DNA of 64,000 nt from Candidatus Bathyarchaeia archaeon (GTDB lineage Archaea > Thermoproteota > Bathyarchaeia > 40CM-2-53-6). A model generated the notes under the pieces. It did not search any database. It was not told the DNA's origin and saw only the letters and a program-made list of their open reading frames with translations. Shown piece after piece: positions 38,753-54,589 of this stretch. Both the position numbers and the translations under genes were made by a program. Each line of letters starts with the position of its first letter. Positions within the stretch are counted from its first letter, which is position 1. The stretch is taken from NCBI GenBank assembly GCA_049513715.1, contig JBEKVV010000004.1:96001-160000 (forward strand), given 5' to 3'.

Positions 38753-39331
38753 CTAGACATGTAGTGGGGTCAGCGTATAGTATACTATATCCGTGCGTCG
38801 GTCAACCACCGCTAGGATCAGTTCCTTCTTCTCCCGTTCTGCGATCGTCAGAAGCTTTTCCAGTTTCCGCAGGCTCGCCTCTCCGCCCTCGTAAACGATG
38901 GATATGAGTCGCCTGAGTGGACCTTTTCCGTAAATATCGAAATCAAAGTTTCCACCGGATTCTCTGACAATATAACCCCTATCTCTCAGATCCCGATAGA
39001 CTAAGTATTTGATCCAGATTTCGGGTTTGACGAGGGAGAATTTCCTGACGAGGTCTCGCAAGTTAACTTCTTTTTCGTCCTTCTTTGTAGAGACGTGGAT
39101 TTTCTGTTTCTCGATGAGGTAGAAGGACTCGTAGGGTGTGAAGTAGAGTCTGTCCTTCTTGAGGTCTCCGAACCCCCTGTCCCGGAGTTCCATGAGGTCA
39201 GATTTGTAGGGTATGTACACACCGTGCGCATCAGAGAATGCGCTCCAAGGGGTAAACTGAGGCTTCTCCTCCGCTTGAATAGGAGGTTTGGCACTCTGCG
39301 GAGGCGGCGCGCTATTCTCCATGAAGACCAC
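38753..39331 (-). CDS. endA: tRNA-splicing endonuclease, structural (beta) subunit
   Basis: YLVYRDLRDRGYIV, LILAVVD....VYY; catalytic Tyr (KYG) and His absent. Confidence 0.85.
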   Translation of the reverse strand: MVFMENSAPPPQSAKPPIQAEEKPQFTPWSAFSDAHGVYIPYKSDLMELRDRGFGDLKKDRLYFTPYESFYLIEKQKIHVSTKKDEKEVNLRDLVRKFSLVKPEIWIKYLVYRDLRDRGYIVRESGGNFDFDIYGKGPLRRLISIVYEGGEASLRKLEKLLTIAEREKKELILAVVDRRTDIVYYTLTPLHV

Positions 39332-48461: not shown

Positions 48462-48550
48462 TCCGACAGGACCCGGTTGCTAATGGGAGAAGGTCAAACA
48501 GGAAACAACCCGAACACTTTAAACTCTCTTGAGGATTTGTATGAAACCGG

Positions 48551-48656
48551 GCCCTGGTCGTTCAGTGGTCTAGGATGACGGCCTGTCACGTCGTCGACGC
48601 GGGTTCGAATCCCGCCCAAAGGAGCGGAAAGAATCTTCTCCTGGCGAGGGGCGCCA
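48551..48656 (+). tRNA. tRNA-Asp(GTC) with a BHB intron at 68/69 (acceptor stem)
   Basis: Removing 48619-48648 restores GCCCTGG/CCAGGGC plus GCCA (76 nt); TTTAAA about 30 nt upstream. Confidence 0.92.
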
Positions 48657-48672
48657 ACCCGCGTACCCACGA

Positions 48673-48813
48673 CTACTCATCAAGGCCGGACAGCTTTTTC
48701 ATGTCCATGTTGCTGAGTTTCTTGCTTTTGCAGCGGGGGCAGGAGGGTTCTTTGGCGTTTGTGAGAAATTCGTAGCTGCAATCATTGCACGCGTAGAAGG
48801 CCGCTTTGTCCAA
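48673..48813 (-). CDS. 46-aa zinc-ribbon protein
   Basis: Manual translation MDKAAFYACNDCSYEF...CPRCKSKKL. Confidence 0.65.
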   Translation of the reverse strand: MDKAAFYACNDCSYEFLTNAKEPSCPRCKSKKLSNMDMKKLSGLDE

Positions 48814-50540: not shown

Positions 50541-50921
50541 ATGGCAAATGAGTCGCATAAAAGCGACGATCCAGAAGTTGACATTCAGCAGGTAATCTGC
50601 AAATTAGTGCTAGCTCTGAAGCGATTGGAGGGCTACAATCCGGTTCTAGATCTGCCGCTCATTGAGGAGGTAGCCCGCAGCGCGGCTTTCATCAGACTCG
50701 GCGAAAGCTTCCTGATCAATCCGAAATGCTCTCCGGGAACGTACGCCAGTATTTCTGATGGGATAGCGAAGCATGCGTCCAGAATGCGCCAAGCCATGAA
50801 GGAGCTGGCAGCTACGAGAGCGGAGCGAATGCGCTACCAAACTGCAACGGCACAAGCCGCGCAGGTCAAAGAGATCGTGGATAAGATCATTCACCAGGAG
50901 AATGAGCATGACAGCGCGTGA
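50541..50921 (+). CDS. putative terminase small subunit
   Basis: Helical 126-aa protein overlapping the terL start. Confidence 0.45.
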   Translation: MANESHKSDDPEVDIQQVICKLVLALKRLEGYNPVLDLPLIEEVARSAAFIRLGESFLINPKCSPGTYASISDGIAKHASRMRQAMKELAATRAERMRYQTATAQAAQVKEIVDKIIHQENEHDSA

Positions 50922-52245
50922 AAGATTCCGAGAAGAGGTAAGTAAGGCTAAGTGGAATGCGGCCTACTTTGCCGAAATCTTCCTCTCTCTGAGACCGTTT
51001 CCATACCAAGTCGACTTTCTCAGGGACGATGGAAAAGAGATTGCCGCGGCATGCGGTCGCCAGGTTGGAAAGACCACCCTAGCCGCAATCAAGGGTTTGC
51101 ATTTTGCCTTCTTCCATCCAGACGTGACTGTGCTGATCATCAGCTCCACGCTCCGCCAAAGCATGATCCTGTTCGCAAAGATCCGCTCAATGACAGAGTC
51201 GAACCCAATTCTCCGAATGAAAGTGAAGAACTCGAACCGGACAACAATTGAATTCGATCACGGCAGCCGAATCGTGGCGTTGCCCTGCGGACCGACCGGT
51301 TACAGCCTACGAGGCCACACCGCGGACATGATCATCCTAGATGAAGCGAACTTCGTGCCGGAAGAGATTGTGGACGGCGTCGTAAGGCCCATGCTCATCG
51401 CCAAACCCAACTCAAGACTCATCATGGTCTCCACACCTTGGACTCGAAACCATCCATTCTACCGAGCCATCTCTGAGAAGGGTCGAGGATTTCATGTCTA
51501 CAGATGGCCGACAAGCCTCAGCCCACTAGTCTCCGCGGAGAAGCTTCAAGCCGACCGCAACGCCCTCGACGCTCTCACATTCAGAAGAGAGTACGAAGCC
51601 CAGTTCGTCGAAGAAAACGATTCCTATTTCCCAACCCACCTCATCTCGCAGTGCGTAGACGGAAGCTATGAACTCCTGGAGGATCAGGACGTTCTCCAAA
51701 CCGAACACAAAGGCGTCTTTCACCTGGGCGTGGATTTTGGGAAGCGGGTTGACCACAGTGTCCTAGCTGTTCTTGAGGAATCCGCAGGCCGACTTCAACG
51801 CTTAGTCTATCTAAAACAGTTCCCGCTGCAAACAAATTACGCAACGGTAATCGGCTGGATTCGCCGCCTCAACGAGGGTTTCGGATTCGAGAGTGTAACC
51901 CTAGACCAGACAGGAGTCGGAGAAGCACCAGTCGAAGACGTGAAAACCTTCCTTCCAAACGCTGAAGGCGTCATTCTGACGAACAAGATGAAACTGGATA
52001 TTCTATCGAACCTGCAACTTCTCATGCAACATGAGAGGTTGAAGATACCGCTCGAAAAGACCATAATCACCCAGATCAACGAGCAGCAATACGAGATCAA
52101 TAAGACAGGGGAACTAATCTTCTCACACCCAACCCGATCACACGACGACAAACTCTGGGCTTTGGTTTTTTCAGCTTGGGGAGCCAGAAAACCACCTCGC
52201 CCAAGCTTCTTGCCAATAACCCGCTCCTTTGGACTAAGACCCTAA
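50902..52245 (+). CDS. terL: terminase large subunit (Caudoviricetes-type)
   Basis: YQ, GRQVGKT, ILDEA, STP, FRREYEAQF, GVDFG, HDD. Confidence 0.92.
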   Translation: MSMTARERFREEVSKAKWNAAYFAEIFLSLRPFPYQVDFLRDDGKEIAAACGRQVGKTTLAAIKGLHFAFFHPDVTVLIISSTLRQSMILFAKIRSMTESNPILRMKVKNSNRTTIEFDHGSRIVALPCGPTGYSLRGHTADMIILDEANFVPEEIVDGVVRPMLIAKPNSRLIMVSTPWTRNHPFYRAISEKGRGFHVYRWPTSLSPLVSAEKLQADRNALDALTFRREYEAQFVEENDSYFPTHLISQCVDGSYELLEDQDVLQTEHKGVFHLGVDFGKRVDHSVLAVLEESAGRLQRLVYLKQFPLQTNYATVIGWIRRLNEGFGFESVTLDQTGVGEAPVEDVKTFLPNAEGVILTNKMKLDILSNLQLLMQHERLKIPLEKTIITQINEQQYEINKTGELIFSHPTRSHDDKLWALVFSAWGARKPPRPSFLPITRSFGLRP

Positions 52246-52379: not shown

Positions 52380-52574
52380 GGGCCCGTAGCTCAGTCAGAT
52401 CCACGCAAAATGGATCCTAGATAGGTAGAGCATCGGAAACACCGTGCAATTCCACGGGTGTTGGTGATGCTTTTACCCTGGGTTTCTGGAACCTTAGGGA
52501 AGCCACCCGAAAAGACACCGCTTAACCGCGGTCTTGGGGAAGGGTCCCGGGTTCAAATCCCGGCGGGCCCGCCA
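52380..52574 (+). tRNA. tRNA-Lys(TTT) with four BHB introns (17/17a, 30/31, 37/38, 43/44)
   Basis: Removing 52397-52422, 52437-52468, 52476-52504 and 52511-52541 gives a 77-nt cloverleaf. Confidence 0.92.
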
Positions 52575-52769
52575 CCTTCACTGAGTGGCTGTACCATTTT
52601 CTTGATGCCAGCAGGACAAAGTCCTCCCGCGAGTAGCCACCATCAGTCTTACGTGAGCATATGCCAGGATTTTTTCTGGTTTGGCGTTTGGAGCGAGCTG
52701 TCGTCAAAGACACCGCTCCCTTGACCACACTAGAACAATTCCTCAGCCCGACTTGTATTCTGCAGCGCA

Positions 52770-52790
52770 GGGCCCGTAGTTTAGTCAAGG
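52770..52790 (+). repeat. tRNA 5'-end fragment GGGCCCGTAGTTTAGTCAAGG
   Basis: Resembles the start of tRNA-Lys at 52380. Confidence 0.55.
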
Positions 52791-52915
52791 TGAGTCCGAC
52801 TGTTTTCGTACACTTTTAGTGGGTGAGTGGCGTGACTGAGCCTAGGCAACGCGGAAGGCTATCTCAGCGCAAAGTCTCTTTAGTAAATCCAAAAGCTAGT
52901 CGTTTCGGGTCTATT

Positions 52916-53262
52916 ATGAGCCCGCAATTCATCCGCTCCAAAAGAGCTTCCAATCTTAGCAAATCCGTGGAGCTTGAGGCGTTCCTTGGTTCCTGCAGAA
53001 ACGATTGGCTAAAAGAGAAAGCCGAAGAGGCATTCACAGAAATAAAAGCTCATTATGAAATTGGCGACAAGGTCCAGAAGGACAGATGGCCGCGCTATTA
53101 CGTCTTGACATGGGGATCAACAATCTGTATGTTCATAAGCTTGGGCGCGACTGGCGCTTAACCTACTCGCTCGTAGCAGATGAAGTAGGAATCATGGCCT
53201 TCTGCCTTGAAATCCTGACACACAAGCAATATAACAAAAGGTTTGGTTACGGGAACACCTAG
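52916..53262 (+). pseudogene. frameshifted RelE/HigB-like toxin
   Basis: After a frameshift near 53102 continues GINNLYVHKLGRDWRLTYSL...LEILTHKQYNKRFGY. Confidence 0.7.
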
Positions 53263-53519
53263 CGCACGCGGATGCTTTTCGCCAATGCCCGCTTTAACGT
53301 GGCGTTGTCAGCGAAGACCCAGACGATTTCACGATCATTCAAGATTATTTTGTTGCTTGCTAGCAAGTACTCTATGACACGGTTGAAAGTTTGGTATTGT
53401 ACCTTGCGCGGGAGGCTTTGCCACAGGGCCTTCTTGGTCGGATAGTTTTTCGCTTTGTGTATGGCTTCTTCCACCATCAGTATGGTTCCTAGTGTGGGTT
53501 CGTGGGCGTTTTTCACCAT
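53259..53519 (-). CDS. small winged-helix protein, putative antitoxin
   Basis: HEPTLGTILMVEE...YQTF..VIEYL.ASNKI; stop overlaps the toxin stop (CTAG). Confidence 0.7.
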   Translation of the reverse strand: MVKNAHEPTLGTILMVEEAIHKAKNYPTKKALWQSLPRKVQYQTFNRVIEYLLASNKIILNDREIVWVFADNATLKRALAKSIRVR

Positions 53520-53578
53520 CAGACATTTCCTCTCCCTTAGAGTTACTACTACAGTAGACTACTATGGTAATGTGCTAT

Positions 53579-53613
53579 TTATACATAATTGTATATTATA
53601 CAAGTATGTATAA
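53579..53613. promoter_or_regulatory. 35-bp AT-rich near-perfect palindrome
   Basis: TTATACATA-A-TTGTATA-T-TATACAA-G-TATGTATAA upstream of the wHTH gene. Confidence 0.55.
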
Positions 53614-53700
53614 TGCTTTAATTGTCGGAAAACGCTATGCCCGCCACATCCATCAAGGGTTGTCATGAAGATTTTGCTCAAGATCCCTGATCTCATGATG

Positions 53701-53731
53701 TTGGTGGGTTCAAATCCCACCGGCCCAACCA
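53701..53731 (+). repeat. tRNA 3'-end (T-arm to CCA) fragment
   Basis: TTGGTGGGTTCAAATCCCACCGGCCCAACCA; first 21 nt identical to 54374-54394. Confidence 0.75.
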
Positions 53732-53779
53732 TCTCGTCTGTGTAATGACCGTTCTTTCACGAGAGTATAATTGAGTCCA

Positions 53780-54043
53780 TCATTTGTAGGCCCTTCCTCT
53801 GAACTCGACAGCGAGAACGGCAATCGTTTTGGATTCCCAGTCGACCTCATACTCGATGCGGATTTCTCCTATTCGTATTCTGTAGGTGTCATGCATCCCA
53901 GCCAGTTTCCTGACATCGTATTCAGGAACTGGCGCTGGATTCTGACTCAAAGCCTCTAAAACCAGCAGGACTCCACGCGCGTAGTGGCTAGGTATACGCC
54001 TAAGCGACTTCCTAGCACGGTTTGAAATAATGATTTCGAACAG
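53780..54043 (-). CDS. relE: RelE/ParE toxin (apparent CTG start; missing from ORF track)
   Basis: FEIIISNRARKSL...DVRKLAG..DTYRIRIGEIRIEYEV...RGRAYK. Confidence 0.85.
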   Translation of the reverse strand: MFEIIISNRARKSLRRIPSHYARGVLLVLEALSQNPAPVPEYDVRKLAGMHDTYRIRIGEIRIEYEVDWESKTIAVLAVEFRGRAYK

Positions 54044-54048
54044 GAGAG

Positions 54049-54267
54049 CTACGCACCGAGTTCCTTTCGGAGCTGGCCTAAGGTGACGTAGCGGCCCTTC
54101 TCAACCTCTAGCCGACCCTGTCGGATCAGTTTTCTTTCTCTGGCAGTCACTCGCTCTTCCGGAAGTAGGGCCGCCCTTAAGCGAAGAAGCTCTATCTTCA
54201 CGTCGTCAAGCTTCGTGATTACTTTACGCAATTCAGTCTTGGTTACTGCCATTAGATTATCCCGCAC
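54049..54267 (-). CDS. antitoxin of the RelE module
   Basis: E..LI..G..EVEKGRYVTL..L C-terminal motif; directly upstream of relE. Confidence 0.75.
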   Translation of the reverse strand: MRDNLMAVTKTELRKVITKLDDVKIELLRLRAALLPEERVTARERKLIRQGRLEVEKGRYVTLGQLRKELGA

Positions 54268-54373
54268 ATCTGCAGTCTAACCAACTAGTAAAAGAATCTG
54301 GCGTCTGGCAGAGCCTTATCTCCTTCCTCCTACGGGGTGGGTATTCTACTTAGAAACGTGATTAGTCCCACAA

Positions 54374-54404
54374 TTGGTGGGTTCAAATCCCACCTGCCCC
54401 AGCA
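54374..54404 (+). repeat. degenerate tRNA 3'-end fragment
   Basis: TTGGTGGGTTCAAATCCCACCTGCCCCAGCA. Confidence 0.7.
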
Positions 54405-54445
54405 CTTTCCTGTTTACCCGTTGCCGTCGAGCATTGCACCTACTC

Positions 54446-54589
54446 CATTGGAGGTCGGCATGTGATGTGCTGGTCGGTGATGCTTTTACCTTTTCGGGAA
54501 ACGTAAACCCAGGGAAGCCACCCGAAAAGAAACCGCTTAACCGCGGTCTTGGGGAAGGGTCCCGGGTTCAAACCCCGGCGGGCCCGCCA
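54446..54589 (+). pseudogene. 5'-truncated tRNA-Lys(TTT) copy (positions 25-76) with three introns
   Basis: CATTGG|54452-54481|GCTTTTA|54489-54519|ACCCGA|54526-54556|GGGTCCCGGGTTCAAACCCCGGCGGGCCCGCCA. Confidence 0.85.

Follow-up and report, generated by a model that had tools for sequence, protein, structure and literature searches.

A probable BHB intron at 68/69 in the sole tRNA-Asp gene of a Bathyarchaeia archaeon, accompanied by a trailer complementary to the T stem

Introduction

Non-canonical BHB introns of archaeal tRNAs, as described for Thermoproteales, Thaumarchaeota and ARMAN-2, are short and lie in a 3-4-3 bulge-helix-bulge (BHB) motif built of exon and intron bases, in genomes where many tRNA genes are interrupted and the endonuclease is of broad specificity (PMC4090602, PMC3239211, PMC8450103). 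The positions given in these sources are 20/21, 22/23, 25/26, 29/30, 30/31, 45/46, 53/54, 56/57, 59/60 and, as the extreme case in the acceptor stem, 3/4 (PMC4090602). The introduction of a 2025 paper mentions introns in "acceptor stem regions" of archaeal tRNAs (PMC12397907), and tRNAscan-SE 2.0 is described as extending its candidates by 60 nt for introns near the 5' and/or 3' ends (PMC8450103). Our literature search returned no tRNA intron at 68/69 and no trailer-assisted cis intron; the intron catalogues (Marck and Grosjean 2003, Tocchini-Valentini 2005, Sugahara 2008, Fujishima 2010) and GtRNAdb lay outside its scope and may list the position.

Two further systems are close in the way in which the motif is presented. 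In the split and permuted tRNAs of Nanoarchaeum equitans, Cyanidioschyzon merolae and Thermofilum pendens, pairing of sequences outside the tRNA builds the BHB; as described, the leader pairs with the trailer and the endonuclease removes both (PMC4090602, PMC3218864). In rRNA processing stems, a long-range flanking helix presents the BHB to the endonuclease, the flanks again pairing with each other, and the described product is a circularised pre-rRNA (PMC7714728, PMC10515664).

Here we describe the sole tRNA-Asp gene of a peat-soil archaeon, with anticodon GUC, found in a window of 64,000 nucleotides (the whole stretch of DNA that was analysed). Its insert resembles the non-canonical introns in length, motif and genomic setting, and differs from them in lying at 68/69 and in that the motif must unfold the T stem, which a conserved complement in the trailer appears to do. 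Pairing with sequence outside the tRNA likens it to the split and permuted tRNAs, but this gene is contiguous and the pairing, which is in cis, joins the trailer to an exon strand; the trailer would, as we propose, be removed later by RNase Z. In contrast to the rRNA case, the flank pairs with a strand of the mature RNA. The intron is of a known kind, in a rare position and with a new folding variant, the trailer.

Anatomy of the tRNA-Asp gene

The one tRNA call in the window is tRNA-Asp(GTC) at 48551-48623, and on raw DNA this truncated stretch with a mispaired acceptor stem (43.4 bits) is all that either ARAGORN or Rfam reports. The 5' acceptor strand GCCCTGG lies at 48551-48557, and the unspliced 3' strand, CCAAAGG, mispairs with it at three of seven positions. 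The T arm, GCGGG-TTCGAAT-CCCGC, lies at 48599-48615 and is followed by CCA (48616-48618), an insert (48619-48648) and GGGC-G-CCA (48649-48656); the insert thus leaves the last 8 nt of the gene beyond it. The features are as follows.

48518..48523, + strand: TTTAAA box, 33 nt upstream of tRNA position 1, likely an archaeal TATA-like promoter element
48551..48618, + strand: exon 1 of tRNA-Asp(GUC), positions 1-68, with the anticodon GTC at 48585-48587
48619..48648, + strand: probable BHB intron of 30 nt between tRNA positions 68 and 69 (in the sister genus g14 these exons are contiguous)
48649..48656, + strand: exon 2, positions 69-72 (GGGC), G73 and the encoded CCA

A preliminary description of this DNA had claimed that excision of 48619-48648 gives back the seven pairs of the acceptor stem together with G73 and CCA, and this is what we found: the pairs from 1-72 to 7-66 all become Watson-Crick. 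ARAGORN calls the excised sequence a 76-nt tRNA-Asp, a call that is blind to the splice register in that excisions shifted by 1-2 nt are taken as well. Since T-arm numbering and linear numbering coincide here, the insert follows position 68 and precedes position 69. The anticodon loop carries no intron, as had also been claimed, because nucleotides 1-68 are contiguous. Upstream, a TTTAA(A/G) box is visible at a similar distance in relatives, and from its sequence the TTTAAA box is likely the promoter element of tRNA-Asp.

The BHB motif

The insert and the exon bases on either side of it can be folded into a BHB whose parts are given below (a slash within a bulge marks the predicted cut).

48613..48616, + strand: H helix, 5' strand, CGCC, tRNA nucleotides 63-66, pairing with 48643-48646
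48643..48646, + strand: H helix, 3' strand, intron GGCG, pairing with 48613-48616
48617..48619, + strand: 5' bulge CA/A, predicted cut after 48618 from BHB geometry, the boundary being backed by an intron-less orthologue
48647..48649, + strand: 3' bulge AG/G, predicted cut after 48648; in relatives the last intron base is A or G and the exon is constantly GGGC
48620..48642, + strand: intron hairpin h', AGGAG (48620-48624) with CTCCT (48638-48642), plus a short inner stem

With the outer helix h, which has just 2 bp (C61-C62 at 48611-48612 with G70-G71 at 48650-48651), this makes a strict 3-4-3 hBHBh' motif: two 3-nt bulges, a 4-bp helix and predicted cuts after the second base of each bulge. 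Helices, bulges and hairpin are those of the preliminary description, which had also foreseen that the motif competes with the T and acceptor stems; it does so by borrowing nucleotides 63-66, that is, three T-stem bases and C66. Both flanking helices are present, h (2 bp, invariant) being the weak end, h' having 5 bp, and a 9-bp trailer helix lying beyond h. The MFE fold uses a 1-nt and not a 3-nt 3' bulge, which puts the energy minimum in a register other than that of the strict motif. Among relatives the last intron base is A or G and the first is A, T or G, while the exon bases are constant, which pins the boundaries. In bulges and helix, in the canonical tRNA left by excision, and in the endonuclease and RtcB encoded by the genome, the insert has what belongs to an archaeal BHB tRNA intron.

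A whole-genome scan for the strict motif of a 3'-acceptor intron, seeded on 70 T-arm-like sequences, gave some candidate at six of the 70 seeds. Only at tRNA-Asp does an unspliced strand that fails to pair go together with four Watson-Crick pairs in H, an h' of 5 bp and, after excision, a 7/7 stem followed by GCCA; the other five candidates come from seeds that have no tRNA-like 3' end or whose unspliced strand is already 7/7 with NCCA. The tRNA-Asp insert is more than a chance motif.

Splicing enzymes

The genome assembly (2.79 Mb, 11 contigs) is 99.4% complete, with 8.8% contamination. It gives only 19 Rfam tRNA matches, which means that most tRNA genes are interrupted. Across the tRNAs of the genome the distance from the acceptor start to nucleotide 66 ranges from 81 to 194 nt, and most genes carry at least one intron. 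An intron-aware ARAGORN run (-i) on the whole genome returned mostly implausible long "introns" and was set aside.

Two endonuclease genes were found, each with PF01974 and PF02778. One, outside the window at ~841.6 kb of contig C1 (G000:C1), encodes an alpha-type (catalytic) endonuclease of 186 aa whose match in a two-repeat NCBIfam model is the C-terminal repeat and which is 81-85% identical to NCBI proteins of Candidatus Bathyarchaeia archaeon. Its closest solved chains are 3p1z_B (E = 2.5e-41), 3ajv_B and 2cv8_A (E from 1e-39 to 1e-41), which we take to be chains of crenarchaeal heterotetramer endonucleases. The other gene lies in the window.

38753..39331, - strand: gene for a beta-like (structural) endonuclease subunit of 192 aa

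This second protein aligns to the N-terminal repeat of the NCBIfam model and weakly to beta-subunit models. RtcB is encoded by one gene (578 bits). Judged from the protein sequences, the two-gene set fits a heterotetrameric (alpha-beta)2 splicing endonuclease, described as one of two types that cut non-canonical introns (PMC5829648, PMC3239211).

Distribution among relatives

With a sequence pattern made of the T-stem end, the insert and the 3' exon, the same insert was found in the same place in 38 of 401 genomes of the class, this one included; a reversed control pattern gave 0 matches in the same 401 genomes. The 22 other genomes of the genus all retain tRNA-Asp complete with the insert. 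The matches in the own genus and in four other families of the order are listed below (genomes with the insert over genomes searched).

Own genus (g1): 22/22
Family f5: 5/5
Family f7: 3/4
Family f9: 4/7
Family f2: 3/16

The pattern was not found in the other genera of the same family (0/36), in five other families of the order or in ~295 genomes of other orders; it is sequence-specific, and these genomes are to be read as "not found", not as "absent". Across 35 Bathyarchaeia sequences the insert is 24-32 nt long. A covariance model built from 35 distinct sequences and run on 151 genomes of the phylum recovered the same arrangement in a genus of another class, g145 (6/6 genomes), where a neighbouring protein is named Nitrososphaerota/Aigarchaeota archaeon. 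Within that class, 7 of 76 genomes have the arrangement, and all seven are g145 (7/7). The T stem of g145 is CCGGG with CCCGG, and its intron H strand follows as GCCG.

In g14, a genus of the same family, the tRNA-Asp exons are contiguous (...CCCGCCCAGGGCGCCA) and there is no insert at 68/69, so that the predicted spliced junction exists as DNA in close relatives. The 3' end of tRNA-Asp is contiguous in genera g2 and g3 too. The patchy spread over two classes bears on intron gain versus loss.

Three other peculiarities of tRNA-Asp in relatives were seen. In g14 (L061, L062) an insert of ~23-31 nt stands right after GCGGG, inside the T arm, and tRNA-Asp is therefore broken at different positions of its 3' half in different genera of one family. 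In g7 (L028, L029, L059, L060, L065) the far trailer GTTGA-GGC/TGC-GGGCGCG looks by eye complementary to leader, gene start and first intron (CGCGCCC-AA-TCAAC), which suggests, from the sequences, that a long-range stem for processing encloses the entire multi-intron tRNA-Asp. In g9 (L026) the 5' acceptor strand is doubled upstream of tRNA-Asp, as GCCCTGG-GCGAAGG-GCCCTGG-TAGTATAG, and the additional GCCCTGG could be a spare leader copy or a very short 5' intron.

The preliminary description knew of no intron this far 3', a statement that does not hold for the phylum. In two other families an intron lies at 70/71 of tRNA-Glu(CUC), so 68/69 is not the most 3' position. The loci are L202 and L203 (g176, f59) and L206 (g165, f55); the intron is bounded as CCGGA/A...GGGAG/GC, CCA is not encoded, and (A)CCCGCGT(C), complementary to the 5' side of the T stem, stands 15-25 nt downstream. 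After excision ARAGORN calls tRNA-Glu for L206 alone, L202 and L203 carrying further inserts.

Covariation

In a MAFFT alignment of the 35 sequences, 85.9% of cells are paired, against 39-45% when the partner is slid, and none of 500 shuffles reached the observed pairing or covariation score. The h' hairpin has changes on both sides at nine of nine pairs, H is paired in 35/35, and H and h are invariant. Inclusion of g145 (41 sequences) shows one H pair to be C-G in 35 and G-C in 6, with 41/41 paired; this alignment was fitted to the structure of the model and is thereby biased towards pairing.

A trailer complementary to the T stem

Directly after the encoded CCA, the DNA is an exact complement of the 5' side of the T arm.

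48597..48605, + strand: trailer helix, 5' strand, A47, C48, G49-G53, T54 and T55
48656..48664, + strand: trailer helix, 3' strand, A76 plus ACCCGCGT, directly after CCA, exact complement of 48597-48605

The trailer is non-coding, the convergent 46-aa ORF downstream ending at 48673. Thermodynamic modelling was used throughout for the folds (37 C parameters, unmodified RNA, protein-free). The pairs of the trailer helix have predicted probabilities of 0.82-1.0. With 16 nt of trailer the precursor has an MFE of -52.2 kcal/mol with both the trailer helix and H formed, P(H) being 0.78-0.89 and P(T stem) 0; when the precursor ends at CCA, P(H) falls to 0.04 and P(T stem) rises to 0.93-0.94. Of the 35 sequences, 24 have P(H) above 0.5 when folded with their native 14-nt trailer, and none does when folded without it; mean P(H) is 0.65 with the trailer, 0.01 without it and 0.17 with shuffled C-rich trailers, some rows of which reach the native value. 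The 11 sequences in which P(H) is at most 0.5 despite the native trailer are all outside the own genus. From these models, the RNA immediately downstream of the gene seems to assist in folding the intron for cutting.

The main alternative, which we regard as unlikely, is that the intron is spliced by the BHB pathway with the trailer complement unrelated to splicing: the endonuclease would take a relaxed motif without the trailer, and the complement could serve termination or 3' processing or give an inactive precursor fold. Heterotetrameric endonucleases are indeed described as accepting motifs in which bulges have 1-4 nt or a helix is absent (PMC3239211). In g145 the MFE fold contains the trailer helix in 6/6, yet P(H) is at most 0.28, and H also stays unpredicted in several families when the trailer is present. 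For the tRNA-Glu introns at 70/71, H is predicted without the trailer (P 0.69-0.74) and the complement is present anyway.

Against this stands, in the first place, that without the trailer the required nucleotides 63-66 are locked in the T stem. The complement also follows the intron from genome to genome. The trailer/T-strand duplex has a median energy of -16.2 (range -20.3 to -9.4) in the 41 intron-bearing sequences and of -7.0 (range -7.6 to -4.7) in orthologues without the 68/69 intron, and the ranges do not overlap; the latter set comprises five sequences, and related genomes are non-independent. Each of the 41 intron-bearing sequences has the trailer complement, and the five intron-less orthologues lack it. 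In g145 it reads GAACCCGGG and has changed along with the T stem (CCGGG). Within the genome, the duplex of tRNA-Asp (-16.2 kcal/mol) is an outlier, ranking first of 35 tRNAs with the next at -10.3; 34 of the ranked 3' ends (intact T arm) were chosen for an encoded CCA right after the discriminator, while the CCA of tRNA-Asp follows excision. We therefore favour a trailer that acts in splicing, and consider it probable that the insert is a genuine 30-nt BHB intron at 68/69 of the only tRNA-Asp(GUC), presented through a trailer-dependent fold.

Splice sites and nature of the insert

The splice sites themselves might lie one base upstream, with 48618-48647 removed, which would give G68 and a U5-G68 wobble in place of U5-A68. 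Such a product is compatible with the sequence, since CC plus GGGGC pairs with GCCCTGG given one G-U and ARAGORN accepts shifted excisions. We nevertheless hold the shift to be very unlikely. BHB geometry has each cut follow the second base of its bulge, the g14 orthologue that lacks the intron reads CCCAGGGC, and relatives with GGCGAA/GGGC are unambiguous at the 3' site. Read by eye, nucleotide 68 moreover covaries with nucleotide 5, the pair being T-A here and A-T in g4 and g22.

Were tRNA-Asp decaying or left unspliced, the 73-nt call with its mispaired acceptor would be all there is, and 48551-48623 is what ARAGORN and Rfam report on raw DNA. The 24 sequencing runs found to contain the locus include none recorded as RNA, and comparison with four of them, contig sets probably of DNA, showed no joint and no variant. 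That reading strikes us as extremely unlikely: this is the only tRNA-Asp found in a 99.4% complete genome, the unspliced acceptor has three mismatches in seven pairs, and the 3' exon, BHB helices and bulges are kept across two classes with compensatory turnover in the hairpin. Equally at odds with the preferred spliced intron, and scarcely credible, is that the insert is the scar of a mobile element or integrase event (att duplication), for although a terminase gene lies 2.2 kb downstream and tRNA 3'-half repeats at 52.5-54.6 kb, the insert is merely 24-32 nt in all relatives, is free of any repeat of the tRNA end and shows a BHB that is conserved and covaries, and the T arm of tRNA-Asp with its 3' end occurs nowhere else in the genome. 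According to the preliminary description, the intron would also break the 3' segment that integrases commonly use as attB.

Neighbourhood of the gene

The convergent ORF just beyond the trailer (48673-48813, - strand, 46 aa) has two CxxC pairs and is zinc-ribbon-like; the part that codes for its C terminus shows conservation within the genus. Further downstream, a 447-aa ORF (50902-52245, + strand) carries terminase large-subunit domains (Terminase_6N, 4e-17; Terminase_6C, 7.5e-06) and is possibly a provirus or viral remnant. Four pieces made of a tRNA T arm and 3' end lie at window positions ~52547-54580 (G000:C4 148546, 149703, 150376 and 150561), and for two of these, of the GTGGG.TTCAAAT.CCCAC type, there is no 5' acceptor strand within 400 nt that would match. 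The 3' half of this type recurs at C3:166054, C3:181343, C3:427306, C1:892313 and C5 (minus strand):15528, given as 0-based offsets on the strand scanned.

Discussion

From the anatomy of the gene, its conservation and the predicted folds, we infer cleavage, ligation and an order of processing as follows. In the primary transcript, A76 and the trailer ACCCGCGT would pair with the 5' strand of the T stem. The freed nucleotides 61-66 would then pair with the intron GGCG and with G70-G71, giving the 3-4-3 BHB atop the intron hairpin. The alpha and beta-like endonuclease would cut after 48618 and after 48648, and RtcB would join A68 to G69. Only after ligation could the T arm and the acceptor stem of 7 bp fold and RNase Z trim downstream of the encoded CCA.

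Two constraints shape this route. A 5' cut after nucleotide 68 needs nucleotides 63-66 as the H strand, and hence the T stem must open. In the folding models the BHB forms only when the trailer is present, so that splicing should precede 3' trimming. The same order is expected from the other side: archaeal RNase Z is described as needing the acceptor stem and as cutting after the encoded CCA (PMC7479834), and here the acceptor stem would form only after splicing. The preliminary description had already argued that splicing must precede end maturation, and the conserved trailer helix now backs this in silico; splicing before 3' trimming should be the expected order.

Taken together, the observations allow a stronger joint reading, about which we are evenly divided: the trailer would be an obligatory cis-acting "anti-T-stem", a folding switch through which an intron in the 3' acceptor strand becomes spliceable and the succession of splicing, RNase Z and aminoacylation is fixed. 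If it is true, a general rule would follow, namely that acceptor-stem introns settle only where the flanking transcript supplies a surrogate strand, which would also apply to tRNA-Glu 70/71.

The insert extends the map of protein-spliced introns into the last eight bases of a tRNA, and it explains why standard tRNA finders, here ARAGORN and Rfam, make truncated calls at this gene. A trailer complementary to a T-stem strand may serve as an annotation signature for hidden 3'-end introns in Bathyarchaeia and Aigarchaeota-like genomes. For the biology of these archaea, the locus offers a testable account of how such a site could be presented, with a short trailer temporarily undoing the T stem; if this is right, the order of processing is fixed for tRNA-Asp.
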